Shown here: positions 18,028 to 64,000 of the stretch, in pieces
How the letters are laid out: the number at the start of each line of letters is the position of its first letter
Position numbering within the stretch: position 1 is the stretch's first letter
Assembly: GCA_025965475.1 (NCBI GenBank)
Contig: JAOPWV010000077.1
Coordinates: 4,313 to 68,312, forward strand
Direction of reading: 5' to 3'
From: Frankiales bacterium
GTDB taxonomy: Bacteria > Actinomycetota > Actinomycetes > Mycobacteriales > SCTD01
DNA: 64,000 bases
Translations under genes and position numbers: made by a program
Notes under the pieces: model-generated
Told to the model about the DNA's origin: nothing
What the model saw: the letters and a program-made list of their open reading frames with translations, nothing else
Databases searched by the model: none

Positions 18028-18036
18028 GGTCGAGGA

Positions 18037-33918: not shown

Positions 33919-33996
33919 GTTGTCGAGGTTGCCACGGCTGTCAGCCGGTTTGCGGTCGTTGGGCGCCTGGCCGTAGAGGTGGCAGGCTCCGGCGGC

Positions 33997-36093: not shown

Positions 36094-36120
36094 CGGATCA
36101 GAATAGCGGCGCATGGGAGC

Positions 36121-45230: not shown

Positions 45231-46894
45231 GGTGCGCAGGGGTCGTCCAGGGCGGTGCTGACCTTCGGCGGCGTGCTCGCGGTCGCGCTGGAGGTGCCGG
45301 TCGGGGTGCCGCTCAGGGTGACCGCCTGCGCCGCGGTGTACGACGTGCCGAGCACGACCTGCAGGACGTTGCCCAGCGCCGGGTCGGACTGCAGGGCGGC
45401 GCCCGGGATGGCGGCGGCCAGGGTACGTGCCGAGTCGGCCTTGGTCGGGCCGTACGACACGATCGTGCCCGTGGCGCCGGACCCGCGGGTCTGCGGGTCG
45501 CCGACCACCTGGAAGCCGAGCTGGCCCAGCTCGCCGGCCGCGCGGCGGCCCAGGCCGTTGATGCCGGAGCCGTTGTAGACCTGCACGCGGATCGCGGAGG
45601 GCGGCACGATCAGGCCGGCGGGCGCGGTGCTGGCGGACGCCTTCGGGGCCGGCGTGCCCGGCGCGATGTCCTGGCGGATCTCGGAGAACAGTTCGTCGTT
45701 CTTGGTTTTGTCGAGCAGCACGACCGAGCCGAGGCCAGGCAGGTAGCCGTCGATGGTGCTGACGTGGACCGTCGTGAAGATGACGTTGCCGGCGCCGAGG
45801 TTGCGCATCCGCAGGGCCAGCGAGCGCATGGTGCCGAAGTCGAGGTTCTCGTCGGCTTGCAGCGACGCCGTGGCGACGTTGAGGAACCCGTTGAGCTTGA
45901 ACGGGTTGGCCAGCGTGCCGGCCGAGAGCACCTTGCGCACCATGGCGCCGATGAACTGCTGCTGCCGTTTGATCCGGTCGATGTCGCCGTTGGCCAGGCC
46001 CTTGCGCTGCCGGACGAAGGACAGGGCGACCGCGCCGCTGATGTGGTGCTTGCCCGCGGTGAGGTTGATGCCCGAGTCGTGCTCGACCGCCGGCTTGGAC
46101 AGACACACGTCGACGCCGCCGAGCTTGTCGACCATCGACTGGAAGCCCTGGAAGTCCACCTGCAGGTAGTGGTCGATCTGTACGCCGGTGAACTGCTGCA
46201 CGGTGGCGATGAGCAGTTTGGGGCCGCCCGTGGCGAACGCGGAGTTGATCCGGTCCTGGCGGGCGTTGTGGACCTTCCCGGTCGTGGGGTCGGTGAACTC
46301 AGGGATGTCCACGATCGAGTCGCGCGGGAAGCTGACCAGCTGCACCTTGTCGCTGTTTCCGCCGTACAGGTGCGCGAGGATCACGGTGTCCGAACGCTGC
46401 CCGGTCACGAACGTGGCGCCGGAGCCCTGCACGCCCTGGCCGGCCTTGAGGTTGCCGCGGCTGTCGGAGCCGACGATGAGGAAGTTCTGCGCGTTGTTCG
46501 GCGCGGCGGCAACCGGCTGCTGGCCCGGCAGGGTGCCGAGGATGCCCTTGAGCTTGGTGATGTTGCCCTCGTAGTGGCCGACGAGGAAGTACCCGGTGAC
46601 CGCGACGGCCAGCACGCTGATCGAGGCCAGCACGGCGATCCACGAGAGCACCCGGGCGGCGCGGCGGTGGCGCTTGCCCTTGGGACCCTCCGGGGCGACC
46701 TGCCGCGTCGGAGGCCGCAGCGGCGGACGGGGCGACGCGTGACGCCCGGGCGTGCCCGGCGGGCGCGGCGGGACGCCGCCGCGACCACGCGGGTCGAGGT
46801 GGGGCGGCAGTGGTCGGGGCGACGGCGGGTACGGCTCGGAGGACGGCTGCGACGGGTTGCTTCCGCCCGCCCTCCAGTCCCGTGGGTCGCTCAC
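45227..46894 (-). CDS. LytR-CpsA-Psr (LCP) family glycopolymer ligase with C-terminal LytR_C domain
   Basis: 555 aa. Pro-rich cytoplasmic N-terminus, one TM helix, NFLIVGSDSR...RSDTVILAHL...SFPRDS core, and a C-terminal LytR_C-like region. Confidence 0.9.
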   Translation of the reverse strand: MSDPRDWRAGGSNPSQPSSEPYPPSPRPLPPHLDPRGRGGVPPRPPGTPGRHASPRPPLRPPTRQVAPEGPKGKRHRRAARVLSWIAVLASISVLAVAVTGYFLVGHYEGNITKLKGILGTLPGQQPVAAAPNNAQNFLIVGSDSRGNLKAGQGVQGSGATFVTGQRSDTVILAHLYGGNSDKVQLVSFPRDSIVDIPEFTDPTTGKVHNARQDRINSAFATGGPKLLIATVQQFTGVQIDHYLQVDFQGFQSMVDKLGGVDVCLSKPAVEHDSGINLTAGKHHISGAVALSFVRQRKGLANGDIDRIKRQQQFIGAMVRKVLSAGTLANPFKLNGFLNVATASLQADENLDFGTMRSLALRMRNLGAGNVIFTTVHVSTIDGYLPGLGSVVLLDKTKNDELFSEIRQDIAPGTPAPKASASTAPAGLIVPPSAIRVQVYNGSGINGLGRRAAGELGQLGFQVVGDPQTRGSGATGTIVSYGPTKADSARTLAAAIPGAALQSDPALGNVLQVVLGTSYTAAQAVTLSGTPTGTSSATASTPPKVSTALDDPCAP

Positions 46895-47033
46895 CGGCAG
46901 TGCTCTCCTCGTGTCGGGGTCTCATCCCGAGGACGTGCGATAGCGCGGCAGGGTTCCCTCAGCGCGCACCCCAGGTTACCGGGGGTGACCTGAGGTGGCG
47001 CTGTGCCGCGCCAGGGCGGCTAACCTGCGGCGC

Positions 47034-48098
47034 ATGAAGGCACTGGTCCTGTCCGGTGGCGCCGGCACGCGTCTGCGCCCCATCACCCACACGAGCGCCA
47101 AGCAGCTGGTCCCGGTCGCGAACAAGCCGGTGCTGTTCTACGGCCTCGAGGCGATCCGCGATGCGGGGGTCACGGACGTCGGCATCATCGTCGGCGACAC
47201 GGCCGCCGAGATCGAGGCCGCGGTCGGCGACGGCAGCGCGCTCGGGATCCGGGTGACCTACATCCGCCAGGAGGCACCCCTCGGGCTGGCGCACTGCGTG
47301 CTCATCGCCCGTGACTTCCTCGGCGACGACGACTTCGTCATGTACCTCGGCGACAACTTCATCATCGGCGGCATCACCGAGCTCGTCGCGGAGTTCCAGG
47401 CCGAGCGGTACGACGCCCAGATCCTGCTGACCCGCGTCGACAACCCGTCGCAGTTCGGCGTCGCGGAGCTCGGGCCCGACGGGCAGGTCTGCACGCTCGT
47501 CGAGAAGCCCCAGGAGCCCAAGAGCGACCTGGCCCTGGTCGGCGTCTACATGTTCACGCCGGTGATCCACGACGCCGTCATGGCGATCAAGCCGTCCGGG
47601 CGGGGCGAGCTGGAGATCACCGACGCCATCCAGTGGCTGATCGACGAGGGCAGGACCGTCAGCCCGCACCTGGTCACCGGCTACTGGAAGGACACCGGCC
47701 GGCTCGAGGACATGCTCGAGTGCAACCGCAAGGTGCTCGAGTCGCTCGAGCCGTCGGTGCGCGGGACGGTCGACGCCGAGTCCCGGGTGATCGGCCGGGT
47801 GGTCGTCGAGGAGGGCGCCGTCATCGAGCGGTCCACGGTCCGGGGGCCGGCGATCATCGGCCGCGACACGGTCATCCGCGACACGTACGTCGGCCCGTTC
47901 ACGTCGATCTACTTCGGGTGCACCCTCGAGGACACCGAGATCGAGCACTCCATCGTGCTGGAGCAGTCGACGATCCGGGGCGTCCGCCGGATCGAGGACT
48001 CGCTGATCGGCAAGGAGGTGGAGGTCGCCCCGTCGTCCGCCCGCCCGCGGGCGCACCGGCTCATGCTCGGCGACCACTCCAAGGTCTCCATCGCCTGA
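47034..48098 (+). CDS. rmlA: Glucose-1-phosphate thymidylyltransferase (long form)
   Basis: MKALVLSGGAGTRLRPITHTSAKQLVPVANKP, with a left-handed beta-helix C-terminal half. 354 aa from the ATG at 47034. Confidence 0.9.
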   Translation: MKALVLSGGAGTRLRPITHTSAKQLVPVANKPVLFYGLEAIRDAGVTDVGIIVGDTAAEIEAAVGDGSALGIRVTYIRQEAPLGLAHCVLIARDFLGDDDFVMYLGDNFIIGGITELVAEFQAERYDAQILLTRVDNPSQFGVAELGPDGQVCTLVEKPQEPKSDLALVGVYMFTPVIHDAVMAIKPSGRGELEITDAIQWLIDEGRTVSPHLVTGYWKDTGRLEDMLECNRKVLESLEPSVRGTVDAESRVIGRVVVEEGAVIERSTVRGPAIIGRDTVIRDTYVGPFTSIYFGCTLEDTEIEHSIVLEQSTIRGVRRIEDSLIGKEVEVAPSSARPRAHRLMLGDHSKVSIA

Positions 48099-48128
48099 GC
48101 GCACTGCGATCTCTGGGATACTGAGCCG

Positions 48129-49115
48129 ATGCGTGTCTTCGTGACCGGCGGCGCCGGCTTCATCGGGTCCCACTTCGTGCGTCAGCTGCTGACTGACGCC
48201 TACCCGGCGTACGCGGGCGCCGAGGTGACCGTCTACGACAAGCTCACCTATGCCGGGAACCTCGAGAACCTCGTGCCGGTGGCCGACTCGCCGCGGTACC
48301 GGTTCGTGCAGGGCGACATCGTCGACGGTGCCCAGCTCGACAAGGAGCTGCCCGGTCACGACCTGGTCGTCAACTTCGCCGCCGAGACCCACGTCGACCG
48401 GTCCATCACCGGCGCGCAGGACTTCGTCGTCACCAACGTGCTCGGCGCGCAGACCCTGTTCGACGCCTGCCTGCGCAACGGGATCCCGCGGGTCGTGCAG
48501 ATCGGCACCGACGAGGTCTACGGCTCGATCTCCGCGGGCTCGTGGACCGAGAACGAGCCGCTGCTGCCGAACTCGCCGTACTCCGCCGCGAAGGCGGGCG
48601 CGGAGCTGCTCGCCCGCGCGTACGCCGTGACGTACGGGCTCAACATCTCGACGACGCGCTGCTCCAACAACTACGGGCCGTACCACTTCCCGGAGAAGGT
48701 CATCCCGCTGTTCGTGACCAACCTCATCGACGGCAAGAAGGTGCCGCTGTACGGCGAGGGGCTCAACGTCCGCGACTGGCTGCACGTCGACGACCACTGC
48801 CGCGGCATCGCACTGGTCGCCGAGAAGGGCGACAAGGGCGAGAGCTACAACATCGGCGGTGGCCGCGAGCTGTCCAACCGGGAGCTCACCGAGGCGCTGC
48901 TCGCGGCCTTCGGGGTCGGCTGGGAGATGGTCGAGCACGTCGAGGACCGCAAGGGCCACGACCTGCGCTACTCGGTGGACCACTCGAAGCTCGGCGCCAT
49001 GGGCTACGCGCCGCAGCACACCTTCGAGGACGGGCTGGCGGAGACGATCGCCTGGTTCCGCGCCAACGAGGCCTGGTGGCGGCCGCTCAAGGAGAAGGCG
49101 GCGCTCGGCTCGTGA
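48129..49115 (+). CDS. rmlB: dTDP-glucose 4,6-dehydratase
   Basis: 328 aa. VTGGAGFIGSHF, TDEVYG, YSAAKAG (YxxxK). Confidence 0.95.
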   Translation: MRVFVTGGAGFIGSHFVRQLLTDAYPAYAGAEVTVYDKLTYAGNLENLVPVADSPRYRFVQGDIVDGAQLDKELPGHDLVVNFAAETHVDRSITGAQDFVVTNVLGAQTLFDACLRNGIPRVVQIGTDEVYGSISAGSWTENEPLLPNSPYSAAKAGAELLARAYAVTYGLNISTTRCSNNYGPYHFPEKVIPLFVTNLIDGKKVPLYGEGLNVRDWLHVDDHCRGIALVAEKGDKGESYNIGGGRELSNRELTEALLAAFGVGWEMVEHVEDRKGHDLRYSVDHSKLGAMGYAPQHTFEDGLAETIAWFRANEAWWRPLKEKAALGS

Positions 49116-50017
49116 GCCTCGCCCTCCTCGTCACCGGGGCCGGCGGACAGCTGGGCAGCGACCTGCTCGAGGCGGTCCGGACCTCGCGGGACGTCTTCGC
49201 CCGGGGGCTCCTGCGCAAGGACCTCGAGCTCACCGACCCGGCAGCCGTGCAGGACATGCTCCTGGGCTGGGAGCGGATCGTGCGCGCCGACAACCCCGAG
49301 CACCGGCTCGTCGTCATCAACGCGGCGGCCTACACGGCCGTCGACGCGGCGGAGACCGACGAGGACATGGCGTACGCCGTGAACGCCACCGCACCCGCGT
49401 TGCTCGCGGCGTCCTGCGCCCGCATCGGCGCCCGGCTCGTGCACGTCAGCACCGACTACGTGTTCCCCGGTGACGCCGCCCGGCCGTACGAGGTCGGCGA
49501 CCCGACCGGCCCGAAGAGCGCCTACGGGCGCACCAAGCTGGCCGGTGAGCTGGCGGTCCGCGAGATCCTGCCCGACGCGTCCCACGTGGTGCGCACGGCG
49601 TGGGTGTACGGCGCCACCGGGCAGAACTTCGTCAAGACGATGGTCCGGCTGGAGAAGGAACGCGAGACGGTCAGCGTGGTCGACGACCAGCGCGGCTCGC
49701 CCACCTGGTCACGGGACCTGGCGAACGGGCTGCTCGCCCTTGCCGGCTCGGACGCACCGGCCGGGACCTACCACGCGACGAACGCGGGCGACACCACCTG
49801 GCACGGGTTCACCCGCGCCGTCTTCGAGGAGCTGGGCGCCGACCCGGGGCGGGTGCTCGCCACGACGACCGACGCGTTCCCGCGGCCCGCGCCCCGCCCG
49901 GCATACAGCGTGCTGTCGCCGAGCGCCTGGGAGCAGGCCGGTCTGCCGCCGCTGCAGGGTTGGCGGGAGGCCCTCGCCGAGGCGTTCAGCACCTCAGGGA
50001 CGGCGCTGCGCGGCTGA
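49112..50017 (+). CDS. rmlD: dTDP-4-dehydrorhamnose reductase
   Basis: The GTG overlaps the rmlB stop. LLVTGAGGQLG, STDYVFPG, YGRTKLAGE. Confidence 0.88.
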   Translation: MSLALLVTGAGGQLGSDLLEAVRTSRDVFARGLLRKDLELTDPAAVQDMLLGWERIVRADNPEHRLVVINAAAYTAVDAAETDEDMAYAVNATAPALLAASCARIGARLVHVSTDYVFPGDAARPYEVGDPTGPKSAYGRTKLAGELAVREILPDASHVVRTAWVYGATGQNFVKTMVRLEKERETVSVVDDQRGSPTWSRDLANGLLALAGSDAPAGTYHATNAGDTTWHGFTRAVFEELGADPGRVLATTTDAFPRPAPRPAYSVLSPSAWEQAGLPPLQGWREALAEAFSTSGTALRG

Positions 50018-52502: not shown

Positions 52503-52952
52503 ATGCCGTTGTGGGGGGAGTACGCGCCGAGCAGCGAGCAGTGGGTGCGCGACGAGGTGGAGCACTACGAGCGCACCGACGGGACCGCGTGGGGCGACCG
52601 GCCGGTCGTCGTCCTCACCAGCCGTGGTGCCGTCTCCGGCAAGCTCCGCAAGACGCCGTTGATGCGCGTCGAGCACAAGGGGATCTACGCCGCTGTGGCC
52701 TCGATGGCGGGCGCGGGCAGCCACCCGGCCTGGTACCACAACGTGCTCGCCGAGCCGCGGGTCGAGCTGCAGGACGGCCCGCGCCGGCAGGACATGATCG
52801 CCCGGGAGCTGTCCGGCCCGGAGCGGGCGGCCTGGTGGTCGCGCGCCTGCACGGTCTTCCCGTCGTACGTGGACTACCAGAGCAGGACCCGGCGCCGGAT
52901 CCCGGTGTTTCTGCTGGAGCCGCTGCCTCAGGAGCCCAGCGCGAGCCGGTAG
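52503..52952 (+). CDS. Deazaflavin (F420)-dependent nitroreductase family oxidoreductase (Ddn/DUF385-like)
   Basis: 149 aa. LTSRGAVSGKLRKTPLM...GSHPAWYHNVLAEPRVELQ...IPVFLLEP. Confidence 0.85.
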   Translation: MPLWGEYAPSSEQWVRDEVEHYERTDGTAWGDRPVVVLTSRGAVSGKLRKTPLMRVEHKGIYAAVASMAGAGSHPAWYHNVLAEPRVELQDGPRRQDMIARELSGPERAAWWSRACTVFPSYVDYQSRTRRRIPVFLLEPLPQEPSASR

Positions 52953-53992
52953 GCCTGCCGGGTCAGCTCGGCGCACCGCTCCCAGGTGAACTGTGCGGCA
53001 TGCCGGCGCCGGGCCCGCGGGTCGCCCGGGTCGCCCAGCACCCGTTCCAGGGCGGCGGCGAAGGCGGCGGGGGAGCCCTGCTCGGCGTACGACGTGACCG
53101 TGCCGCCGACCTCGCGCAGCACCGGCAGGTCGCTTGCGACCACGGGCGTGCCGGCCGCCAGCGCCTCGACGACCGGGATGCCGAATCCCTCGTCGCGGCT
53201 GGGCAGGACGAGCGCCGAGGCGCCCGCGACGACGGCGCGCAGGCGCTCGTCGTCCAGGAACCCGGGGGTGACGCAACCGGAGACGTCCACCTGCTCGCCC
53301 CAGCCCGTGGGCCCCACCAGGACGAGCGGAGGCGCGTCGGGGAGGAGCCGGTGCGCGGCGAGCAGCGTGCCCAGGTCCTTGCGTGGCTCGAGGGTCCCGA
53401 CGAAGACGAGGTACGACGGGGGCAGCCCGAGCGACGCGCGCAGGGCCTCGTCGGGCGGTGCGGCGGTGTACCACTCGGGGTCCACGCCGAGCGGCGTCAC
53501 GACGATCGGGGCGCGGACGTCGTACTCCTCGCGCACCTGCTCGGCGACCGCGGTGCTCGGCGTGATCACGACCGACGCGCGGCGCAGCGACCGGGGGACG
53601 AGCGTGCGGTAGCGGGCGCTGGCACTGCTGACGGTCTCGGGCATCCGCAGGTACGACAGGTCGTGGATGGTCACGACCCCGGCGGCGCGGCGCAGCGGCG
53701 GGAGCACGAAGTTGGTGGCGTGGAAGACGTCCAGCTTGCCGGCGAGCAGCTCGACGGGCGGCCACTCGACCCGGGCCCAGGCCTCCTGGAGGCCGCGGGC
53801 CGGCGCCGGTCGGGCGGCCACCCGGACGCCTTCGGGTACGACGGCCGGCAGCGCCTCGCGGCCGCGGAAGGTGAACGCCGTGGCCACGAGCTCGTCGTCG
53901 TGTGCGGCCAGCGCCCGCAGCAGCGCGAGGGTGTAGCGGCCGACCCCGGTCCTGTTGCCCAGCAGCGGGGTGGCGTCGAGCCCGATCCGCAT
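52928..53992 (-). CDS. GT4-family (GT-B) glycosyltransferase
   Basis: 354 aa from MRIGLDATPLLGNRTGVGRY, ending with PSRDEGFGIPVVEALAAGTPVV (E-x7-E). Confidence 0.88.
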   Translation of the reverse strand: MRIGLDATPLLGNRTGVGRYTLALLRALAAHDDELVATAFTFRGREALPAVVPEGVRVAARPAPARGLQEAWARVEWPPVELLAGKLDVFHATNFVLPPLRRAAGVVTIHDLSYLRMPETVSSASARYRTLVPRSLRRASVVITPSTAVAEQVREEYDVRAPIVVTPLGVDPEWYTAAPPDEALRASLGLPPSYLVFVGTLEPRKDLGTLLAAHRLLPDAPPLVLVGPTGWGEQVDVSGCVTPGFLDDERLRAVVAGASALVLPSRDEGFGIPVVEALAAGTPVVASDLPVLREVGGTVTSYAEQGSPAAFAAALERVLGDPGDPRARRRHAAQFTWERCAELTRQAYRLALGS

Positions 53993-54002
53993 GGCCGCCA
54001 CG

Positions 54003-55559
54003 TCAGTCGAGCAGCCGGTGCTTGTCGACGATGTCGTGCCACCGGTCGGCGAAGGCGTCCTCGCTGTACTCCTGCGCGCGGTGGGTCGCTGCGGCGGACA
54101 GGCGCGCGCGCAGGTGCTCGTCCTCGGCGACCTCCGCGGTGCGGGCCAGCAGCTGGGCCGGCGTCGTCCACCGGAAACCGTCGACGTTCTCGCGCACGAT
54201 CTCCTTCTGCCCGGCTCGGTCGATGACGACGGGCACGCAGCCACCGGCCATCGCCTCGACGGTCGTCATGCCGAAGTGCTCGTTGGCCCAGGGCGTCTTG
54301 TGCTCGTCCTCGCTGTAGCCGGTGGCGGACCAGAACACCGACGACGTCGACAGCAGCTGCTCGACGAGCTTGCGCGGGACGTTGGCGATCACCTCGACCG
54401 GCAGGCCGGCGCCGGCGGCCCGCACCTGGTCGACGTAGTTCTGCTGTGAGTCCTCCATGCCGCCGAGGACGTACATCCGCCAGTCCCGCGGGATGACCCC
54501 GGACCGGATGCCCTCGGCGAAGAACTGCACCATCTCGAGCTGGCGCTTGGCGTGGCCGAGGCCGGGCGAGAAGAACCGGCCCACGGTGATGACGGCCTTC
54601 TCGCGCTCCGGCGCGGGATGCAGCCGCTGGACCTGGATGGGCGGGAACAGCAGTTCGGCCTCGGTCTTCCACAGCTGCTGGATGTAGCCCCGGGTGTATT
54701 CGCTGTTGGCCATCACCGTGTCGTAGCCCTCGAGGAACGACAGGTTCCGCGGGTCGCGCATGAGCCACGGGAAGCGCTGCGCCACCCGGGCCCGCGGGCC
54801 GTAGTGGCCGCCCTCCAGGCGCATCCGGCTCACCGCGACGCCCAGCCGGCGCCGGTCGTCGCCGCCCGGGGAGAACGTCTCGGTCCGGAAGTGCAGCTCG
54901 GTGCCCCGGACGGAGGCCGGGAAGTCCAGATGGTGCGTGGTGAACTGCGAGCCCACCTCGATCTCGGCGAGCACGTGGCCCTGCTCGTCGCCGATGGTCA
55001 GCACCCGGGGCTCCGGCATGCCGGGGCCGCCGAGCTCCATCCGGATGCGCCGGGCCTTCGCGTCGGGCGACAGCGTCAGGACCGCGTCCTCCGTGGTCCA
55101 GGCCCACTGCCGCAGCCGACCGCCCTCGGGGGGGAACCAGCCGACCCCGTAGTCGACCCCGCCGGTGTGCGCGCGCAGCAGCGGCCCGAGGTTCCGGGTG
55201 GCGGCTCGCCGCCAGGGCGACAGGTCGGCGTCGAACGGCGTCGGGAAGTAGCAGAGGTACGCCGCGTGCCTGGCCCTCGGCCGCAGCCGGCTGGTGTACG
55301 TCCCGTTGACGAACAGGTCGTACTCCTCGGACACCGCGGCCAGGTGCAGGTCGCCGCGGTCCGGCTCGACACGCAGGGTGCACCGCGACAGGTCGAGGCC
55401 GAGGTGGTCGGCGAGCTCGTCCTTGTCGACCTCGGTGTGGCCGATGAGGTCGACCTGGACGCCGTCCTGGGACAGCACTTCGGCGATCATCCCGGAGTGG
55501 CGTTCGCCGCCACCCTGGCTGTGCCAGAAGCGGTCGTAGATCGCGGCCCGCTTGGTCAT
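54003..55559 (-). CDS. Glycosyltransferase with GT4-type C-terminal half and uncharacterised N-terminal ~250 aa
   Basis: 518 aa from MTKRAAIYDRFWHSQGGGERH. The C-terminal EHFGMTTVEAMAGGCVPVV motif is present. The ATG overlaps the upstream GT2 stop (ATGA). Confidence 0.85.
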   Translation of the reverse strand: MTKRAAIYDRFWHSQGGGERHSGMIAEVLSQDGVQVDLIGHTEVDKDELADHLGLDLSRCTLRVEPDRGDLHLAAVSEEYDLFVNGTYTSRLRPRARHAAYLCYFPTPFDADLSPWRRAATRNLGPLLRAHTGGVDYGVGWFPPEGGRLRQWAWTTEDAVLTLSPDAKARRIRMELGGPGMPEPRVLTIGDEQGHVLAEIEVGSQFTTHHLDFPASVRGTELHFRTETFSPGGDDRRRLGVAVSRMRLEGGHYGPRARVAQRFPWLMRDPRNLSFLEGYDTVMANSEYTRGYIQQLWKTEAELLFPPIQVQRLHPAPEREKAVITVGRFFSPGLGHAKRQLEMVQFFAEGIRSGVIPRDWRMYVLGGMEDSQQNYVDQVRAAGAGLPVEVIANVPRKLVEQLLSTSSVFWSATGYSEDEHKTPWANEHFGMTTVEAMAGGCVPVVIDRAGQKEIVRENVDGFRWTTPAQLLARTAEVAEDEHLRARLSAAATHRAQEYSEDAFADRWHDIVDKHRLLD

Positions 55560-56902
55560 CGGGTCGCCACCAGCCACTCCTCGAGCCGCCGGCGCGACAC
55601 GACGGACTGCCGTGCGAGGGCCCGGCGCTTGAGGATCATGACGGGTAAGAGTCGCAGGAACGACGCGAGCACCTTCAACCGCATGAGGGTCGGCCGGACG
55701 GCGGGCCGGCTGCGTGCCTTGAGGGACTGCCGCACGCTGCGCAGCGCGATGGACCCCGTCGTCAGCGGGTAGCGCAGGACCTCCCTGACCGCGAACCGCA
55801 GGCTCGCGTCCTTCACCAGCATCAGCAGGCGGTTGCGGTCGGTGTGGAAGACGAACGTCGGGGACCATTCGACGCTGCTGGCCGAGTGGATGTGCCGGAC
55901 GACGGCCTTGGGCTCGTAGCGGATCGACCAGCCCGCCGCGCGCAGCCGCCACGACAGGTCGGTGTCCTCGTAGTACAGGAAGAAGTCGTCGTCGAACCAG
56001 TCAGCCTGGCGGCCGGCCTCGGTGCGGAAAGCGACCGCGCAGCCGCACAGTGCGAAGACCTCGGTGGGCTCGTCGTACTGACCGGTGTCGACGTCCTGGT
56101 AGCCGCGGTCGGCGCCGTAGCCGGCGGTCAGGACGATGCTGCCGACGTTGTTGACGACGTCCACGACCGGTACGCCGGCCGGCACCTCGACGGTGTGCTC
56201 CGCCGGTACTGCCGTGACCGGCAGGGTGGCCGCGCCGCCGTCCCAGGACAGGGTGGCGGTCTTCTCGCGCTCGCCGGCCCAGCGGACCGAGATGCGGACC
56301 GGCCCGGCTGCGTCCGGCAGCGGGACCAGCAGCTCGCCCTCCGGACGTGCCCAGCGGAACCGGCCCTCGCCGCTGCCCTCCGGTCCCCAGGTGAGCCGCT
56401 CCATGAGAACCCGCTCGGTGACGTCCTCGTCGCCGACACGGATCCGGAACAACTGCAGCCCGAGGTCGCGGGGGTCGTGCGGGCCGGGGGAGAAGCCGGT
56501 GGTCTGCAGGCGCAGCCGCAGGAACCGCGGCTGGAAGACCACCTTGCTCGTCACGGCGGCGAGCCGCTCGTTGCCCGGCTCCTCCAGCGGGGCGAGCAGT
56601 TTCTCCAGCCAGTCGGGCTCGGGGGTCGCGTCGTTGTTGAGCAGAACGGCATACGGCGTCGTGATCTGACGCAGCGCGGTGTTGTTGCCGCCGGCGAAGC
56701 CGAGGTTCTCGCTGTTGCGCAGGATCCGGACGTCCGGGTACTCGCGTTCGAGCAGGGCCACCGACCCGTCCGCCGAGGCGTTGTCGACGACCCACACGTC
56801 GAACGGCGCACCGGTCTGCTGGCGGGCCAGCGCGTCCAGGCAGGGCCGAAGCAGGCGCTCGCCGTTCCAGTTGACGATGACGACGGTGGCGCGCGGCGTC
56901 AT
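55556..56902 (-). CDS. GT2-family glycosyltransferase (rhamnosyltransferase-like) with internal insertion
   Basis: 448 aa. VVIVNWNGERLLRPCLDAL...VVDNASADGS...LLNNDA, with an insert of about 150 aa before the CGCAVAFR...ED(T)DLSWR region. Confidence 0.88.
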   Translation of the reverse strand: MTPRATVVIVNWNGERLLRPCLDALARQQTGAPFDVWVVDNASADGSVALLEREYPDVRILRNSENLGFAGGNNTALRQITTPYAVLLNNDATPEPDWLEKLLAPLEEPGNERLAAVTSKVVFQPRFLRLRLQTTGFSPGPHDPRDLGLQLFRIRVGDEDVTERVLMERLTWGPEGSGEGRFRWARPEGELLVPLPDAAGPVRISVRWAGEREKTATLSWDGGAATLPVTAVPAEHTVEVPAGVPVVDVVNNVGSIVLTAGYGADRGYQDVDTGQYDEPTEVFALCGCAVAFRTEAGRQADWFDDDFFLYYEDTDLSWRLRAAGWSIRYEPKAVVRHIHSASSVEWSPTFVFHTDRNRLLMLVKDASLRFAVREVLRYPLTTGSIALRSVRQSLKARSRPAVRPTLMRLKVLASFLRLLPVMILKRRALARQSVVSRRRLEEWLVATR

Positions 56903-58098
56903 GCGGCCCCGCTCCGGGGCAGGACCGCGCTCGTGGCCGGTACGGCGAGGATGCCCGGCAGGTCGCCGCCGCGGCCCTTCACGGCCTCGTCGAACCGGGC
57001 CACCGCAAGCGGGTAGCCGGTCTCCGGGTCCTCGACCTGGACGGCGAGGATGAACGAGCCGTTCAGGGCCGGGGCGTGCTCGACCACGAACTCGACCGTG
57101 TAACGGCCGGGCACGGCCGGCACGCCCTGCCCGGGTGGGGTCCGCATCGAGAAGATCGGGATGTCACCGGCGCCGACGAGCACGACGATCACGTCGCCGG
57201 CGAACACGTCGGCGGCAGCGAGCACCTCGACCTCGACGCAGACGTGCAGCGGCTGCCCGGCGAGCACCTCCGCCGTACGCGGGCCGCCAGCGGTCAGCGA
57301 CGGGATCGCGGCGTGCACGTACGCGCCGCGCGGCTCGGGGGCGGGCGGCTCGCCGACCGGCCGGTCGGTGCCGAGGATCTTGCGCAGCGTGCCGACGGCG
57401 TACGACGGGTCGCCGTCGTACTGCACGCGGCCGTGGTCCACGACGATGCCGCGCGTGCACAGCTGCTCGACGAGGTCGAGCGCGTGCGTGACGAACAGGA
57501 TGGTCTTGCCGGCCTGCTGGAACTCGGTGATCTTCGCGAGGCACTTGCGGGCGAAGGCCTCGTCCCCGACCGCGAGGACCTCGTCGACGAGCAGGACGTC
57601 CGGGTCGACGTGCACGGCGATGGAGAAGGCCAGCTTGACGTACTCACCGGACGAGTAGTGCTTCACCGGGTCGTCGATGCGCTCGCCCTGCTCGGAGAAC
57701 TCGACGATCGAGTCGAGGAGCCCGTCGACCTCCTTGCGCGACAGCCCCAGCAGGGCCGCGTTGAGGTAGACGTTCTCCCGGCCGGTCAGCTCGCCGTTGA
57801 AGCCGGCGCCGAGTTCGAGCAGGGAGGCGATCCGGCCCTCCACCTGCACCTCGCCGGAGGTCGCCCGCAGGATGCCGGCGAGCACCTTGAGCAGCGTGGA
57901 CTTGCCGGCGCCGTTGGGCCCGATGAGCCCGACGGTCTCGCCCTGCCCCACCGTGATGTCGACGTCGCGCAGCGCCCAGAACTCGCCCTCCGTCACGGCC
58001 TTGCGCCGCACGATGCGCTCCTTGAGCGACGTCGCCCGCTGCTTGTGCGTGACGAAGCGCTTGGAGACGCCCCGCGCGCTGATGACCGGCTGCGTCAC
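56899..58098 (-). CDS. Polysaccharide ABC exporter ATP-binding protein (Wzt/TagH-like) with ~150-aa C-terminal extra domain
   Basis: The GTG at 58098 overlaps the permease stop. Walker A GPNGAGKST, signature YSSGEYVKL, Walker B LLVDEVLAVGD. A beta-rich C-terminal domain follows (residues ~250-399). Confidence 0.9.
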   Translation of the reverse strand: MTQPVISARGVSKRFVTHKQRATSLKERIVRRKAVTEGEFWALRDVDITVGQGETVGLIGPNGAGKSTLLKVLAGILRATSGEVQVEGRIASLLELGAGFNGELTGRENVYLNAALLGLSRKEVDGLLDSIVEFSEQGERIDDPVKHYSSGEYVKLAFSIAVHVDPDVLLVDEVLAVGDEAFARKCLAKITEFQQAGKTILFVTHALDLVEQLCTRGIVVDHGRVQYDGDPSYAVGTLRKILGTDRPVGEPPAPEPRGAYVHAAIPSLTAGGPRTAEVLAGQPLHVCVEVEVLAAADVFAGDVIVVLVGAGDIPIFSMRTPPGQGVPAVPGRYTVEFVVEHAPALNGSFILAVQVEDPETGYPLAVARFDEAVKGRGGDLPGILAVPATSAVLPRSGAA

Positions 58099-59006
58099 AG
58101 CTCTTCCGCGAAGTCCGCCTGCATCCGGGTGAACACCCGGCGCGCGAACAGGAAGAGCAGCCCGGCGATGACGAACCCGATCGCCAGGTTGCGCAGGTAG
58201 AAGGCGTAGCCGGGATCGGCCAGGGCGTGGCCGATGGCGTGGGGTGGCTTGGTGTTGACGTAGCCGTCCTTGACGAAGATGGCCCGCTGGAAGGTCGTCA
58301 CGACCGTGGCCATCGGGTTGAGGAAGTACGCCCAGAACAGGTGGTACTGGTCGAGCTTGTCCTTCACCAGTGTCGAGGTGTAGAGGATCGGGTTGAGCCA
58401 GAACCAGACCAGCAGGGCGATCTCGACGGCGTGCGCGGTGTCGCGGTACCGGACGTTCAGCGCCGAGACCAGGTAGCTGAAGGCGGTCGAGAACAGCAGG
58501 AGCAGCGCCAGCGCCGGGACGATGAGCAGGAAGGCCGGGCTGAAGTCGTGCCGGAAGATCGTGGTGACGAGCAGCAGAACGACCAGCTGCAGGACGAAGT
58601 GCACGAGGGCATAGCCGACCGCCGACAGCGGCAGGACCTGGAGCGGGAAGCGCACCTTCTTCACCAGACCGGCGTTGCCGACGACGGTGCCGGACGCGGT
58701 CGACACCGCGGCGGAGAAGGCCGTCCAGGGCAGCAGGCCGCACATCAGGAAGATGGCGAAACCCGGGACGCCGTTGTTGAGCACCACGCCGAAGATCAGG
58801 TAGTAGATGCCCATGAGCAGCAGCGGATTGGCCAGGCTCCACGCGAAGCCGAGCACGGACCCCTGGTACTTGACCTTCAGGTCCTTGCGCACGAGCTGAC
58901 TGAGCAGCTCCCAGCTGACCCGGCTCTGCGCCCGGGCGCGGCGGCGCGCCAGTTCGCTCCGGTCGCCGAGCGGTGGGACGGCCGCGCCAGGAGCCTCAGT
59001 GGCCAC
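58095..59006 (-). CDS. ABC-2 type polysaccharide exporter permease (Wzm/TagG-like)
   Basis: 303 aa. VRKDLKVKYQGSVLGFAWSLANPLL is the hallmark start of Wzm/TagG. 6 TM helices. Confidence 0.9.
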   Translation of the reverse strand: MATEAPGAAVPPLGDRSELARRRARAQSRVSWELLSQLVRKDLKVKYQGSVLGFAWSLANPLLLMGIYYLIFGVVLNNGVPGFAIFLMCGLLPWTAFSAAVSTASGTVVGNAGLVKKVRFPLQVLPLSAVGYALVHFVLQLVVLLLVTTIFRHDFSPAFLLIVPALALLLLFSTAFSYLVSALNVRYRDTAHAVEIALLVWFWLNPILYTSTLVKDKLDQYHLFWAYFLNPMATVVTTFQRAIFVKDGYVNTKPPHAIGHALADPGYAFYLRNLAIGFVIAGLLFLFARRVFTRMQADFAEEL

Positions 59007-59149
59007 GCGGGTCAGCCTCCAGGGCGTCTATCCGGGGTGCCGTCCGGCAGGACAGCCGGAGCGGGCAGCAGGCGCACGAGCCGGTCGCCGGGCTTGCCGT
59101 GGAGCATAACCAGGCGTTCGCGCCGCGGCCGGTCGCTACCCTTTGCGCC

Positions 59150-61240
59150 GTGACCTCGACGCTGGCCGGTCCCACCTCGTCCGGCGCACTCGGGGACGAG
59201 GCGCCCGCCGCCGACCACCGGGTCCTGACCGGTACCGATCTGCTCGCCGGTGGTGCGGTGCTGGCCGTGGCGCTGCTCGCCTGGGCGAGCCTGGTGCTGG
59301 CCCATCTGGGGGTCCACTCGCTTGCCGGTGCCGTCGGCCTCGGCCTCGCGATGCTCGGCGTGGTCGGGGTGCTGGCCGTGCTGGCCAGTCGCCGGCACAG
59401 GGTGCGCGTGGCCGCGGACCCGGCCGGGATCGTGGTGGCGGTCCTGTGTGCCGCGGTCGCCGCGGCCCTGACCTTCCCGGGCTTCTCCTACGGCGTGACC
59501 GACAAGGATCCCGGCGGCTACGTCGCGCACGCGGTCGAGATCGCGCACAGCGGCGACTACACGTTCACCGATCCCCTGCTCGCCGATCGCCTGCCGAACG
59601 GCCAGCCCCTCGACGTGCAGTTGGCTTCGCCGGGCGCCCGGTTCCCCGGCGTGTGGATCAAGGACGCGCCCACCGGCAAGATCGTTCCGCAGTTCTACCA
59701 CCTGTGGCCCGCCCTGCTGGCGACCGCGTACGACGTCGGCGGGTACGACGGGATCCGCTTCGCCGTACCGCTGATGGGCGTCCTCGCGGTGCTCCTGCTG
59801 GTCGCCCTCCTGCGGCGGCTGGGCGATGCCGTCGCCGGTCCGACGGCGGGGCTCGTCGCCGCGGGGGCAGGCGGATTGCTGCTCGCGACGAACATGCTGC
59901 AGGTCTGGCAGGCGCGGTACCCCACGACAGAGGTCCTGGCGGAGGCGCTGTACCTCGCCTCCCTGCTCGGCATCGTCATCGCCCTGCAGACCGGGTGGCG
60001 ACCCGCCGCCGGCCTGGCCGGGCTGTTCGTCGGCATCGGCTGGCTCAACCGCGCGGATGCCCTCCTGCTGGTCCTGCTCTCGGTCGGCGTGGGCGCCGCT
60101 CTGCTCGCGACCCGGCGCTGGGACAGCCGGGCGACCTGGTACGCCGCCGGCCTCGCCGTCGTCGTGCCGCACGCCGTGCTCCAGGCGTACGACCTCGCCC
60201 GGTTCTACACGCTCGGCAACAACGTCCCGACCCTGTCCACGGTCGTCGCGGTCACCGTCGGGCTGTTCGCGGCCGCGCTGGTCTGCCGGCTCCTCCTCCG
60301 CCGGCCGATCGCCTGGCTGCTGGGGCTGCTGGAGCACCGCTCCACCCAGGTCGTGGCGGGGCTCGTGGTCCTGGTGGGAGCCACCGGGCTGATGGCGCTC
60401 GGGTTCCTGCGGGCCCGGCTCTTCGGCGCCGACTACTTCCTCTACAACGGCGCGAGCGTCCGCTCGTACGACGAGCAGATCCTGACCCGGCTGGCCTGGT
60501 TCTTCACCGTGCCGGGGTTCGTCCTCATGCTGCTCGGGCTCGCCGTGGTGGCTGTCCGGCGGTGGAGCGGCGCGGTCTGGGCCGTCGTCGTCCCGTCGCT
60601 GCTGCTGTTCGCCGTCTACGCGTACACCGCCAAGAACTCCACGCGGCTGCTGTGGTGGACGCGTCGCTACGTCCCGACCGTCCTGCCCGGGATCCTGGTG
60701 CTCGTCGCGCTCGCCCTCGCGTTCGCGTTCGTCTGGCGGTTCCGCGGGCGCGCGGTCCTGCGCGTGCCGTCCGTGCTGGCGCTGGTCGCGTTGGTCGCCG
60801 TCTTCCTCTCCCAGTCCTGGCCGCTGCGGGCGCACGACGAGTGGAAGGGCTCCCTCGAGATCTCCCAGCAGATCGCCGACCTGTCCGGTCACGCCCGTGG
60901 CGTCTACCTCTGGGAGTACCAGCCCTGCTGCAACGGCACGACCCAGCTGTTCGCGACCCCGGTGTGGCTCGCCCACGGCGAGCTGTCGGTGCTGCTGCCC
61001 CTGGCCGTCGAGAACCGCACCCCGATCGTCAAGGAGTACGCCGCCCACTTCACGGGCGAGCCGCTGTTCATCGTGGCCGGCAAGAGCGGCCTGCCCGCCG
61101 GTCTCGATCCCGCCAGCGTCACGCAGGTCGCGCACATCACCGCGGCCCTGCCGATGTGGGACGAGAGCGACACCGAACGGCCGTCGAAGGCACGCCGGGT
61201 CCCGGTCGAGCTCCGGGTCTGGCGCGTCAACGGCACGTGA
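59150..61240 (+). CDS. Large polytopic membrane protein, possible GT-C fold glycosyltransferase (ArnT/PMT-like)
   Basis: 696 aa from the GTG at 59150, taken from inside the merged ORFs. About 12-14 TM helices. The first loop carries VTDKDPGGY. A soluble C-terminal domain of about 130 aa follows. Confidence 0.75.
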   Translation: MTSTLAGPTSSGALGDEAPAADHRVLTGTDLLAGGAVLAVALLAWASLVLAHLGVHSLAGAVGLGLAMLGVVGVLAVLASRRHRVRVAADPAGIVVAVLCAAVAAALTFPGFSYGVTDKDPGGYVAHAVEIAHSGDYTFTDPLLADRLPNGQPLDVQLASPGARFPGVWIKDAPTGKIVPQFYHLWPALLATAYDVGGYDGIRFAVPLMGVLAVLLLVALLRRLGDAVAGPTAGLVAAGAGGLLLATNMLQVWQARYPTTEVLAEALYLASLLGIVIALQTGWRPAAGLAGLFVGIGWLNRADALLLVLLSVGVGAALLATRRWDSRATWYAAGLAVVVPHAVLQAYDLARFYTLGNNVPTLSTVVAVTVGLFAAALVCRLLLRRPIAWLLGLLEHRSTQVVAGLVVLVGATGLMALGFLRARLFGADYFLYNGASVRSYDEQILTRLAWFFTVPGFVLMLLGLAVVAVRRWSGAVWAVVVPSLLLFAVYAYTAKNSTRLLWWTRRYVPTVLPGILVLVALALAFAFVWRFRGRAVLRVPSVLALVALVAVFLSQSWPLRAHDEWKGSLEISQQIADLSGHARGVYLWEYQPCCNGTTQLFATPVWLAHGELSVLLPLAVENRTPIVKEYAAHFTGEPLFIVAGKSGLPAGLDPASVTQVAHITAALPMWDESDTERPSKARRVPVELRVWRVNGT

Positions 61241-62943
61241 CGTCCCTCCTCCGGCCGCTCCTGGCCCGCTGGTACGCCCCGCTCGTCTACCTCCTGCTCG
61301 CCCTCGTCGGCCACGCGCAGGCCCTTCGTTCGCTCGGCGGCACGACCCGCTGTGCCTGCCGGGACGCGCCCGAGACGGACTGGTTCCTCGGCTGGACCCC
61401 GTACGCCGTGCTGCACGGCCACGCGCCGTGGACCAGTGCCCACCTCGCGGCCCCCGAGGGCGTGAACCTCATGTGGAACACGCTCATGCCGCTACCCGGG
61501 CTGCTCATGACGCCGGTGACGCTGCTGGCCGGACCGCTCGCCACCCACACCCTGCTGGCCGTCCTCGGTATGACGCTGTCGGCCACCGCGATGTGGTGGG
61601 TGGCCGGCCGGTGGGTGCCCTGGGGGCCGGCCCGGTTCGTCGCCGGGCTGCTCTACGGGTTCTCCCCGTACCTCGTCGGCCAGGCGACCGACCACCTGCA
61701 TCTGTCCCTCGTCGCGCTGCCGCCGCTCGTGCTGCTCTGCCTCGACGAGCTGCTGGTGCGCCAGCGTCGTCGCGCGCTGCTCGCGGGGTCGCTGCTCGGG
61801 CTGCTGGCCCTGGCCCAGTTGCTGACGGCCGAGGAGGTCCTCGCCTCGATGTTCGTCGTCTGCGTCGCCGGCCTCGCGGTACTGCTCGCCCAGCAGTGGC
61901 GCCGCCTCGACCGGGGACGGGTCCGGCACGCCGCCGTCGGCCTGAGCGCCGCCGCCGGGGTGCTGGTCGTGGGCGCTGCCTGGCCGCTGGGCGTGCAGTT
62001 CTTCGGGCCGCGGCGGCTCAGCGGACCGGCGACCGGTGCGGCGCCGTTCGCGGCGGACCTGCTCGGCGCCGTCGTGCCCGGCCCGCACCAGCTGCTGGGC
62101 CTCCAGTCGATCGCGTCCTGGGGCGGCGGCCCGACGGAGAACGGCAGCTACCTCGGCATCCCGCTCCTGCTCCTGCTCGCCGCTCTCGCGTGGCGCCTGC
62201 GGTCCGTCGCCGTCGTGCGGTTCGCGACCGTGCTCGGAGCCGTCACCCTGGTGCTCTCGCTCGGCGAACGCCTGCACGTCGCCGGGACGGCGTACGGCCT
62301 GCCGCTGCCCTTCGCCGCGGTCGCGGCGCTGCCCGTGCTGCACGACCTGGCGGCGGTGCGGTTCTCCCTCTACGTCGCGCTGTTCGCGGCGCTCGTCGCC
62401 GCCGTCGGAGTGGACCGCCTGCACGCCTCCGGTGCGCTGCGCCGTCGTCCCGGGCTGGCCGTCGTGGCGACCCTCGCCGTGGCCGTGCCGCTGTTGCCCG
62501 CCTGGCCGTACGCGTACCAGGACGCGCGGACGCCGGCGTACTTCACGACCGCCACCGTCGAGCGCGTGCCCGAGGGGGCGCTGGCCCTGACCTACCCCGT
62601 GCCGCGGTTCCCGACGAGCGCACCGATGGCGTGGCAGGCGGTGGCCGGCTACCGCTACCGGTCGGTCGGCGGCTACGTCATCACCCCCGACGCGCAGGGC
62701 CACGGCACGTTCACCGGCGGGGTCACCCTCTGGGAACGGACGGTCCTGCACGCCGCCGTCGGGCGACCGATGCGGCTGACGCCCCGGCTGAGCAGCCGGC
62801 TCGCGGCGGAGATCGCCCGGCTGCGCGTGCGGGCGGTGCTCGTCGCGGACACCCGGGGCTCCGCGGAGGTGGTGCGGCTCGTGACCGCCGTCCTGGGGCG
62901 GCCGGGGGAGCACGCCGGCGGCGTGACCGCCTGGTACCTCTAG
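61237..62943 (+). CDS. Polytopic membrane protein of unknown family with C-terminal extracytoplasmic domain
   Basis: 568 aa. The GTG at 61237 overlaps the upstream stop (GTGA). About 11 TM helices and a C-terminal soluble region of about 140 aa. No motif I can name. Confidence 0.7.
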
Positions 62944-63578
62944 TGCCAGCTGTCGGCGCGGCCGACGACCTTCGCGGGTACGCCCGCGACGACCGCGCCG
63001 GCCGGGACGTCCTTCGTGACGACCGCGCCCGCGGCGACGACAGCGCCGTCGCCGATCGTGACGCCCTTGAGGATGATCGCGCGGGTGCCGACCCAGACCC
63101 GGTCGCCGATCACCACCGGCGCGGCGGACGGCTGCTCGACGCCGTCGACGGTGAGGGCGTGGAAGTCGTTGTCGAGCACCTGGACGTCCCAGCTGAACGT
63201 GCAGGCGGCACCGATCGTCACGGCCTGGGCGCAGAGGATCTTCGTGCCCAGCCCGTTGACGTTGGTCGCATGACCGATCTGCAGCCGGCCGCCGTCGACC
63301 ACGACGCGGATGCCGCGCTGCAGGGAGACGACGCCCTCGCAGTGGAAGGTGGCCCCCTCCCGCACCCGGACGACCGAGGTGTCGCCTTCGCTGGTGAGGC
63401 CGAACGGCCCGAGGCCGATGCGCAGCGCACCGCCGGGGGACACGGTGATGCGGTCGGCGCCGTCCAGCACGGTGTCGGAGCCGATCCAGATCGCGCGCCT
63501 GGCCAGTACCCGATGGCGGAGCACGCCGCCGTAGAAGGCGCGGGCGGAGGTCTCCTTCGCCCCGCGCAGGGACGTCAT
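62940..63578 (-). CDS. Hexapeptide-repeat (LbH) O-acyltransferase
   Basis: 212 aa from MTSLRGAK. The C-terminus [49 protein letters not shown] is a classic hexapeptide acetyltransferase sequence. Confidence 0.85.
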
Positions 63579-63703
63579 GGCGCGGCGGTAGCCACGGAAC
63601 TCGGCAGCGGGCACGGGTAGCAGGCTAGGGCGCGGCCCGCCGGGCCGGGCGTCCGGCGCGGCTAGGATCGGCGTACCGCCTGCCAGCCCGGGAGTCCCCT
63701 GTC

Positions 63704-64000
63704 GTGACCGCGCCTGTCCGCACGTCCGCCCAGAAGGCCGCCAAGAAGGCGGCCCCCTCACGCCCCGCCGCCGCCCGCCTCGCCGCGGCGGCGGCGGAGA
63801 TCGTCGAGCTCGACGAACAGGTTGACGTCACCGTCGTCCTGCCCTGCTTCAACGAGGTCGGGCACGTCGAGGAGGAGATCGTCCGCATCGCCGCGGCCCT
63901 CGACGCCAGCGGCTACACGTACGACCTGGACGTGTACGACGACTGCTCGACCGACGGCACCCGCGAGCTGCTCAAGGACATCAGCGAGTCCGGCCGCTTC
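63704..64000 (+). CDS. GT2-family glycosyltransferase (polyprenol-phosphate sugar synthase-like), N-terminal part; 3' end outside window
   Basis: Not in the ORF track because it runs off the window end. My translation from the GTG at 63704: [19 protein letters not shown]...[20 protein letters not shown]...[14 protein letters not shown]. Confidence 0.75.

Follow-up and report, generated by a model that had tools for sequence, protein, structure and literature searches.

Two Unrelated Membrane Proteins With a Predicted GT-C Fold Beside a Polysaccharide ABC Exporter of a Frankiales Bacterium: Candidate Extracytoplasmic Glycosyltransferases

Introduction

What is the function of two overlapping genes for polytopic membrane proteins that lie next to a polysaccharide ATP-binding cassette (ABC) exporter in the genome of a Frankiales bacterium? 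In this work, a stretch of 64,000 nucleotides (nt) from contig JAOPWV010000077.1 of assembly GCA_025965475.1 was analyzed, which is referred to as the window and whose positions are used throughout. The two genes, here named P1 and P2, occupy positions 59150–62943. An earlier interpretation made from the DNA letters alone (the sequence-only reading) had described their products as giant proteins of unclear family. With 696 and 568 amino acids (aa), they are of more ordinary size, and their predicted structures support a glycosyltransferase C (GT-C) fold for both. We hypothesize that P1 and P2 are two unrelated GT-C glycosyltransferases that add sugars to an exported polymer, and we consider this hypothesis, together with the whole pathway proposed below, to be moderately probable. 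Its grounds are the gene structure, the fold, the conserved residues on the outside face, and the conserved synteny, from which we infer the type of donor, the acceptor, the order of the steps, the catalysis, and the coupling of the two genes.

Gene Structure of the P1–P2 Stretch

The window consists of actinobacterial DNA with 72% GC. Long spurious open reading frames (ORFs) are common in DNA of such composition, so the coding frames were checked first. The ORF list gave 58973–61240 (755 aa) and 59143–62943 (1266 aa), both of which are fused. A frame plot of GC at the third codon position (GC3) revealed two coding frames on the plus strand, at 59221–61260 and 61201–63000. The GC content at codon positions 1, 2, and 3 was 0.74, 0.50, and 0.95 for 59150–61240, and 0.78, 0.54, and 0.96 (GC3 0.956) for 61237–62943. 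The upstream part of the 1266-aa ORF (59143–61236) had a GC3 of only 0.50, and thus its frame is non-coding there. The 755-aa and 1266-aa ORFs are frame artefacts. The sequence-only reading had already resolved them into proteins of 696 and 568 aa joined by a GTGA overlap, and both the frame plot and the homologues bear this out. The elements of the stretch are as follows.

59150–61240, plus strand: P1, 696 aa, candidate GT-C-fold membrane glycosyltransferase
61237–62943, plus strand: P2, 568 aa, candidate GT-C-fold membrane glycosyltransferase
61237–61240, plus strand: GTGA, in which the start codon of P2 overlaps the stop codon of P1 (read directly in the sequence)
59137–59142, plus strand: TACCCT, putative −10 box (TANNNT), 7 nt before the start codon of P1

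The possibility that P1 and P2 are chance ORFs of high-GC DNA was rejected on the basis of the GC3 of 0.95 and the hundreds of homologues. The GTGA overlap is present in 19 of 22 orthologous loci, and it implies translational coupling of P1 and P2. The P1 start at 59150 is supported by two observations. The consensus N-terminus of the homologues (MTSTLAGP) begins at the equivalent residue, and the TANNNT motif is fixed in position: each of the 16 distinct orthologous regions upstream of P1 has it at −12 or −13, and it does not recur within the 70 nt examined. The comparison comprised the window and the loci L001, L004, L006, L007, L009–L011, L014, L016, and L018–L024. Actinobacterial leaderless transcripts show a fixed −10-like box directly before the start codon, and the P1–P2 transcript is probably leaderless and driven by its own putative promoter. 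Apart from the TANNNT motif 6–7 nt before the P1 start, the intergenic DNA of these 16 loci varies in both sequence and length. No sigma-70-type promoters or intrinsic terminators were detected in a scan of 58900–63900, which is expected at 72% GC and uninformative.

Predicted Structures and Conserved Residues

The structures of both proteins were predicted with AlphaFold2 from 43-sequence alignments, and the transmembrane (TM) topology was derived from the secondary structure of the models and the positive-inside rule. In the P1 model (predicted local distance difference test score, pLDDT, 86.7; predicted template modeling score, pTM, 0.89), there are 15 TM helices, composed of two extra N-terminal helices and a 13-TM core, with the N-terminus inside and a C-terminal domain of 136 aa (residues 561–696) outside. 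The first large outside loop (residues 109–198) follows the third TM helix and carries the acidic motif VTDKDPGGY at residues 116–124. In the alignment of homologues, D118 is nearly invariant and K119-D120-P121-G122 are invariant. The sequence-only reading had noticed this motif and assigned it to the first loop of the protein; the motif is retained, and its location is corrected to the first large outside loop. In addition, invariant vicinal cysteines, C593-C594 (window positions about 60926–60931), are found in the C-terminal domain of P1, on the outside.

By searching the P1 model against the PDB with Foldseek, the first 20 ranks were found to be occupied exclusively by GT-C enzymes, 15 of them at E ≤ 1e-3. 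All significant matches were therefore of the class to which the sequence-only reading had assigned P1 when it proposed such a structural search. The top matches were STT3, AglB, and PglB (E about 1e-6, TM-score 0.43–0.45), followed by ALG9, ALG12, and ArnT, with the Emb proteins weaker. The sole Pfam signal of P1 was PMT_2 (PF13231; the GT39/GT83-like ArnT/PMT group) at 22.4 bits (E 1.6e-4), which falls below the gathering threshold of 26.1 bits and thus short of membership. The same model was weakly matched by 11 of 43 members of the P1 family (E ≤ 0.01, best 7.8e-5).

The leading matches of P1 are oligosaccharyltransferases acting on proteins, and PMT_2 is a family resembling protein O-mannosyltransferases. 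Both would allow a protein acceptor, so one or both of the proteins might glycosylate proteins in the manner of these enzymes. We regard this as very unlikely, since the PMT_2 score is below the cut-off, P1 is matched as well by ArnT, ALG9, ALG12, and Emb, whose acceptors are lipids or glycans, and the close and conserved association with a polysaccharide ABC exporter and a glycosyltransferase operon (see below) favors a glycan acceptor.

The P2 model (pLDDT 80.5, pTM 0.85) has 11 TM helices with the N-terminus inside, and its C-terminal part (residues 420–568, 149 aa) forms a single small alpha/beta domain outside. Thus, the sequence-only reading was right in giving both proteins more than 10 TM helices and a soluble C-terminal domain. 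The outside loop EL1 of P2 (about residues 29–99), between TM1 and TM2, carries the invariant D43 and short juxtamembrane helices. The invariant P144 splits TM3 into helices 130–141 and 144–151. TM7 spans 31 residues and leads into a long, flexible, low-confidence loop (257–307). When P2 was aligned with 40 relatives of 34–45% identity, the invariant residues proved to be D43, P73, N77, P144, E200, G257, D274, G307, G343, P358, R375, P454, and Q467; P144 apart, they all map to the outside face or to an outward helix end. Two residues before D43, P2 has an invariant CxC (C39/C41, window positions about 61351–61359), whose invariance is limited to the close clade and does not extend to the wider family. 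It is possible that this pair and C593-C594 of P1 form disulfides or bind metal.

With P2, the first 32 Foldseek ranks were all GT-C enzymes (9 at E ≤ 1e-3), the best match being AftD (6w98; E 1.8e-5, query TM-score, TMq, 0.54–0.56, 18% identity), with further matches to STT3, AftA, PglB, ArnT, and DPY19. Beyond the GT-C ranks, unrelated folds enter the lists of P1 and P2 at probabilities of about 0.5 or less. The sequence of P2 remained below the gathering thresholds of DUF2079, GT87, DUF6541, DUF6311, PTPS_related, and TgpA_N (for the last, 19.2 bits at a cut-off of 30). Within its family, DUF2079 was weakly matched by 7 of 41 members (at E-values of at least 2e-4) and GT87 by one or two. 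Hence, the sequence-only reading, which could not place P2 in a named family, still holds at the level of sequence, but the model reveals a GT-C fold most like that of AftD and AftA.

According to the AftD structure paper, the hallmarks of GT-C enzymes are juxtamembrane helices between TM1 and TM2, a broken TM3, a long TM7 with a long loop, and a domain in the periplasm; in AftD, the GT-C super-domain has 11 TM helices in about 600 residues, and K39, D41, E251, K361, and D474 are essential. In the predicted structures of both P1 and P2, there is a polytopic TM core of the GT-C arrangement and, after the first helix of this core, an outside loop with a conserved acidic residue. In P2, TM3 is also kinked by proline, as described for AftD, while the assignment of the equivalent helix of P1 was of low confidence. 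The conserved outward residues of P2 parallel the essential residues of AftD and therefore lend support to the GT-C assignment. Altogether, the models support a GT-C fold for P1 and P2. The two proteins were also compared as possible paralogues, and this was rejected because hhalign gave a probability of 0.6%, i.e., no detectable relation.

The lack of sequence membership in any characterized glycosyltransferase family would agree with P1 and P2 being non-enzymes that retain a GT-C-like fold, such as membrane scaffolds, flippases, or chain-release factors. This seems extremely unlikely given that the invariant residues of acidic or polar character are concentrated on the outside, at positions used by GT-C enzymes, and that a glycosyltransferase of family 2 (GT2) resembling a donor synthase is conserved in the gene module. 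The named homologues among those listed are all annotated as "hypothetical protein," save one "glycosyl transferase."

Conserved Gene Neighborhood

The genes of the window that bear on the function of P1 and P2 are given below.

58095–59006, minus strand: Wzm-type ABC-2 permease, divergent from P1 (Pfam ABC2_membrane, E 3e-16)
56899–58098, minus strand: Wzt-type ABC ATPase (Pfam ABC_tran, E 1.8e-19)
55556–56902, minus strand: cytoplasmic GT2 of the exporter operon (Pfam Glycos_transf_2, E 3.7e-25)
54003–55577, minus strand: GT1/GT4-type glycosyltransferase (Pfam Glycos_transf_1, E 4e-14)
52928–54001, minus strand: GT4 glycosyltransferase (Pfam Glyco_trans_1_4, E 7e-21; Glyco_transf_4, E 3.5e-16)
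62940–63614 (62940–63761 in the ORF list), minus strand: hexapeptide-repeat acyltransferase (Pfam Hexapep)
63704–64000, plus strand: 5' part of a GT2, 98 aa to the window end (Pfam Glycos_transf_2, E 6e-6)
46995–50017, plus strand: sugar-nucleotide genes, namely a nucleotidyltransferase, an epimerase/dehydratase of the RmlB/GDP-Man-dehydratase type, and RmlD
45227–46894, minus strand: LytR-CpsA-Psr (LCP) ligase (Pfam LytR_cpsA_psr, E 1.4e-48)
35545–36240, minus strand: small membrane protein of the GtrA family, candidate lipid-sugar flippase (Pfam GtrA_DPMS_TM, E 1.9e-25)

Synteny was counted in 24 close loci, including the window, from metagenome-assembled genomes (MAGs) of Frankiales/Mycobacteriales. 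P1 and P2 were each found in 21 of them, Wzm in 20 (beside P1), Wzt in 19, the GT2 of the exporter operon in 17, and the GT1/GT4-type glycosyltransferase in 14. A hexapeptide acyltransferase directly follows P2 in 19 loci. In about 20 loci, the whole block is kept, with wzm-wzt-GT2-GT1, the divergent P1–P2 pair, and the convergent hexapeptide acyltransferase. Furthermore, a GT2 of 337 aa stands beside the acyltransferase in 18 of the 24 loci. The copy in L001 carries two TM helices at its C-terminus; in NCBIfam, it came closest to AglJ, dolichyl-P-hexose transferase, PpgS, PgfS, and ArnC, each a polyprenyl-phosphate-sugar synthase, and it remained below every cut-off. The presence of this GtrB/ArnC-like GT2 is contextual evidence that the donor of P1 and P2 may be a sugar linked to a lipid phosphate. 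A gene with the LPG_synthase_TM domain (an MprF-like flippase domain) occurs in 14 of the close loci and is a candidate for the flippase of the lipid-linked donor; in L001, it lies at 17907–18887 on the plus strand, about 3.6 kb downstream of P2. Using tblastn with the LPG_synthase_TM, methyltransferase, BNR, and SpoIID proteins of such loci, no counterpart was found in the window, which ends 1 kb past P2.

The conserved synteny fits an extracytoplasmic glycosylation module. The sequence-only reading had also proposed such a module for the exported glycan; the synteny and the GT-C folds speak for it, while several of the details brought forward in its support failed or could not be borne out. 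P1 and P2 had been placed downstream of the exporter. Since wzm and wzt are on the minus strand, P1 and P2 are divergent from them. The GtrA-like gene is real, but it lies 23 kb away in a housekeeping context, so there is no ground for tying it to the P1–P2 module. The acyltransferase is confirmed and is of the hexapeptide-repeat type. The GT2 at the window end does have a GT2 domain, and the best matches of a partial homologue (P0391) are ArnC and PgfS, far below their cut-offs. Finally, that reading had named a lack of co-transcription with the cluster as a finding against its proposal, and taken literally, this is what was found, because P1 and P2 are on the opposite strand with an apparent promoter of their own and are thus not co-transcribed with the exporter operon. 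The divergent arrangement is nonetheless strongly conserved across the loci.

Proposed Pathway

We hypothesize that the glycan is completed in several steps on both sides of the membrane. In the cytoplasm, the GT2 and GT4 enzymes of the divergent operon would assemble a polyprenyl-linked polysaccharide, from precursors that may include sugars of the dTDP-rhamnose type supplied by the nearby nucleotidyltransferase, dehydratase, and RmlD genes. The polymer would then be exported by Wzm/Wzt. At the outer face of the membrane, P1 and P2 would each transfer a sugar from a polyprenyl-monophosphate-sugar donor to the exported polymer, with the catalytic Asp residue in the first large outside loop (D118 or D120 in P1 and D43 in P2) and with the outside C-terminal domain possibly aiding acceptor binding. 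The donor would be made by a membrane-anchored GT2 of the GtrB/ArnC type and flipped by a small flippase, and an LCP enzyme would link the finished polymer to peptidoglycan. A single transcript, probably leaderless, would encode both P1 and P2, whose translation would be coupled through the GTGA overlap.

Besides the oligosaccharyltransferase matches of P1, several observations weigh against this pathway. The Pfam and NCBIfam matches of P1 and P2 are all below the thresholds, NCBIfam taken by itself giving none, and the profile searches of the P1 and P2 alignments against all PDB sequences returned no relevant match. The Foldseek TM-scores are moderate (0.43–0.56) and the root-mean-square deviations high, and the catalytic residues are placed by topology and conservation. 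The pair stands outside the transcription unit of the exporter, and the sole GtrA-like gene is the distant one mentioned above. Moreover, the window lacks the GtrB-like 337-aa GT2 that the orthologous loci carry, and the fragment of the GT2 at the window end is unclassifiable.

The similarity of P2 to AftD and AftA, which build arabinan, raises another possibility. Instead of single decorations, P1 and P2 might prime a second glycan domain on the exported polymer, or polymerize it, as AftA, EmbA/B, and AftB–D do with arabinan on galactan. The fact that two different GT-C enzymes are encoded together in the close loci would agree with this, as would the tandem arrays of P2-family paralogues in other Actinomycetota, the emb genes of mycobacteria being tandem paralogues as well. 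On the other hand, no genes for a donor of the decaprenyl-phosphate-arabinose type (DprE1/E2, UbiA-like) were seen among the window genes scanned, P2 with its 568 aa is without the carbohydrate-binding modules of AftD and Emb, and the single GtrB-like donor synthase of the orthologous loci is better explained by simple glycosylation. We therefore consider this alternative unlikely. A still bolder version, to which we give little credence, is that P1 and P2 are the founders of two glycosyltransferase families unclassified in CAZy and form an obligate hetero-complex which builds the second glycan domain on the ABC-exported backbone. Emb proteins and Pmt1-Pmt2 also pair, but as paralogues, whereas P1 and P2 are of unrelated GT-C lineages. 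If this were true, it would mean that wall assembly in two stages, in the style of arabinogalactan, exists in uncultured Frankia-like relatives of the mycolate bacteria.

Comparison With Known Glycosylation Systems

Transfer of sugars to ABC-exported polymers by a GT-C enzyme together with a lipid-phosphate-sugar synthase and a flippase is an established arrangement (PMC11127046; PMC8035078). Examples of such multi-component (three-component) transmembrane glycosylation systems are GtrA/GtrB/Gtr*, CsbB/GtcA/YfhO, GacI/J/K/L, and ORF12–15 of C. youngae (PMC11127046, PMC8035078). The general mechanism we propose for P1 and P2, with a GT-C enzyme, a lipid-phosphate-sugar donor, and an ABC-exported polymer, is already well established, and it is the P1 and P2 families that are uncharacterized. 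In common with these systems, P1 and P2, known from genes and models, combine a polytopic GT-C fold with a position beside a polysaccharide ABC-exporter locus; the orthologous loci add a membrane-anchored GT2 of the polyprenyl-phosphate-sugar synthase type, and the acceptor is proposed to be an already exported polymer. Where the known systems have one GT-C gene, the P1–P2 locus has an overlapping operon of two that are unrelated. The module in this window contains no flippase gene, and P1 and P2 fall outside YfhO, PMT_2, GT136, and the other named families at curated thresholds.

The best structural matches of P2, AftD and AftA (PDB 6w98 and 8if8), are mycobacterial arabinofuranosyltransferases of arabinogalactan and lipoarabinomannan. 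P2 shares with AftD the 11 TM helices, the proline-kinked TM3, the long TM7 with a flexible loop, and the periplasmic domain. D43 of P2 stands just after TM1 and is the putative counterpart of D41 of AftD. At the sequence level, there is no detectable homology of P2 to AftD or AftA, as the profile searches against PDB sequences gave no match at E ≤ 10. P2 does not contain the three carbohydrate-binding modules or the acyl carrier protein-binding C-terminal helix bundle of AftD, and it is shorter (568 vs. about 1400 aa). In addition, the genes of the decaprenyl-phosphate-arabinose pathway that belong to AftD and AftA were not seen among the scanned genes of the window.

In M. tuberculosis, PpgS (Rv3631), Rv3632, and Rv3779 decorate arabinogalactan with galactosamine (PMC3485146). 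In this system, a GT2 makes the polyprenyl-phosphate sugar and a polytopic glycosyltransferase transfers it to the wall polysaccharide outside the membrane (PMC3485146). PpgS is among the best matches, below the cut-off, of the GT2 conserved in the loci orthologous to ours, while the gene order of PpgS/Rv3632/Rv3779 differs from that of the P1–P2 loci. STT3/AglB/PglB and ArnT (GT66 and GT83) share with P1 the 13-TM core, the acidic outside loop, and the outside C-terminal domain. Unlike these enzymes, P1 has two extra N-terminal TM helices and no match at the level of sequence, and its genomic context suggests a polysaccharide acceptor and not protein or lipid A.

Distribution of the P1 and P2 Families

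At E ≤ 1e-3, 482 homologues of P1 and 494 of P2 were found, and in both cases, the 120 best that were listed were at least 56% identical. The P1 relatives that were found all belong to the Frankiales-like clade. When 1.84 billion cluster representatives were searched with the profile of P2, 8465 matched at E ≤ 1e-3, of which 2236 reached E ≤ 1e-30. Among species-representative genomes, 301 carriers of the P2 family were identified, including MAGs of Frankiales/Mycobacteriales (56–66% identity), many Acidimicrobiales (33–45%), two Frankia sp. assemblies, and one Solirubrobacterales MAG. No Pfam model matched this wider P2 family above threshold, the weak matches being DUF2079, TgpA_N, DUF6541, GT87, and PTPS_related. 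P2 thus belongs to a very large family that is modeled by neither Pfam nor NCBIfam, and the characterization of one member could found a new GT-C family in CAZy. It would also clarify how wall polysaccharides are completed in Actinomycetota outside the mycolate group. For two proteins annotated as hypothetical, the present analysis provides a fold and a testable role.

The loci of distant P2 homologues have no conserved partner gene, and P1-like genes were absent from them even by a hidden Markov model search. Because distant P2 genes are found with no P1, and one P1 homologue with no P2, the pair is clade-specific and not obligate. The latter homologue, P0118, is 56% identical to P1 (L002 7586–9676 and L003 7989–10079) and has no called P2 and no adjacent wzm/wzt. 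A GT4-like stretch comes next to it, and a second, partial P1-like ORF lies at the start of the contig. Two or three P2 paralogues in tandem or close to each other, without a P1-like gene, are present in L027, L037, L043, L060, L061, L064, and L080, which come from MAGs of Acidimicrobiales and other Actinomycetes. Some genomes have three or more copies of the P2 family on separate contigs, e.g., RYN_46 (L042, L055, L078). In L017, a P2 orthologue of 791 aa (P0232, 10001–11596) stands beside wzm-wzt with no separate P1 match. A fusion of the two genes, a loss of P1, or an artefact of assembly or frameshift could account for this.

Neighboring Genes in the Window

The stop codons of P2 and of the convergent hexapeptide acyltransferase lie within a common CTAG (62940–62943). 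The same 4-nt convergent overlap is found in L001 (13830–13833), and there is no space for a terminator between the genes. The matches of the acyltransferase in NCBIfam, all below the thresholds, were WbbJ, WcaF, and maltose O-acetyltransferase. The 98-aa fragment of the GT2 at the window end was uninformative in NCBIfam, and two partial homologues of it were found (163 and 124 aa). The one that is 69% identical, P0391, had ArnC and PgfS as its best NCBIfam matches, far below the cut-offs.

The LCP gene also exceeds the NCBIfam cut-off for the LCP domain (E 2.6e-45), and its product is likely a glycopolymer–peptidoglycan ligase responsible for the final attachment step. The sugar-nucleotide genes gave the Pfam matches NTP_transferase, GDP_Man_Dehyd/Epimerase, and RmlD_sub_bind (E 8.5e-97). 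A methyltransferase is also encoded to the left of the exporter operon, near the LCP and RmlD genes. Close to the LCP gene and upstream of the wall-polysaccharide region, there is a PilZ-domain protein of the cyclic-di-GMP receptor type (43072–43701, minus strand). The rest of the window consists mostly of genes of the housekeeping type. The gene of the GtrA family is flanked by an acyl-CoA carboxyltransferase (33931–35541), an acyl-CoA dehydrogenase, a tyrosine phosphatase, and purK/purE. We take this neighborhood to resemble the accD5...purK/purE region of M. tuberculosis, and the GtrA-family protein may serve a pathway other than that of P1 and P2.

Wzt extends about 150 aa past its ATPase domain, and no Pfam family was found in this extension at E ≤ 0.01. 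In orthologous loci, a methyltransferase gene is located between wzt and the GT2 gene (L001 6949–7767). The extension and the methyltransferase are reminiscent of the recognition of a chain terminator by the carbohydrate-binding domain of Wzt.

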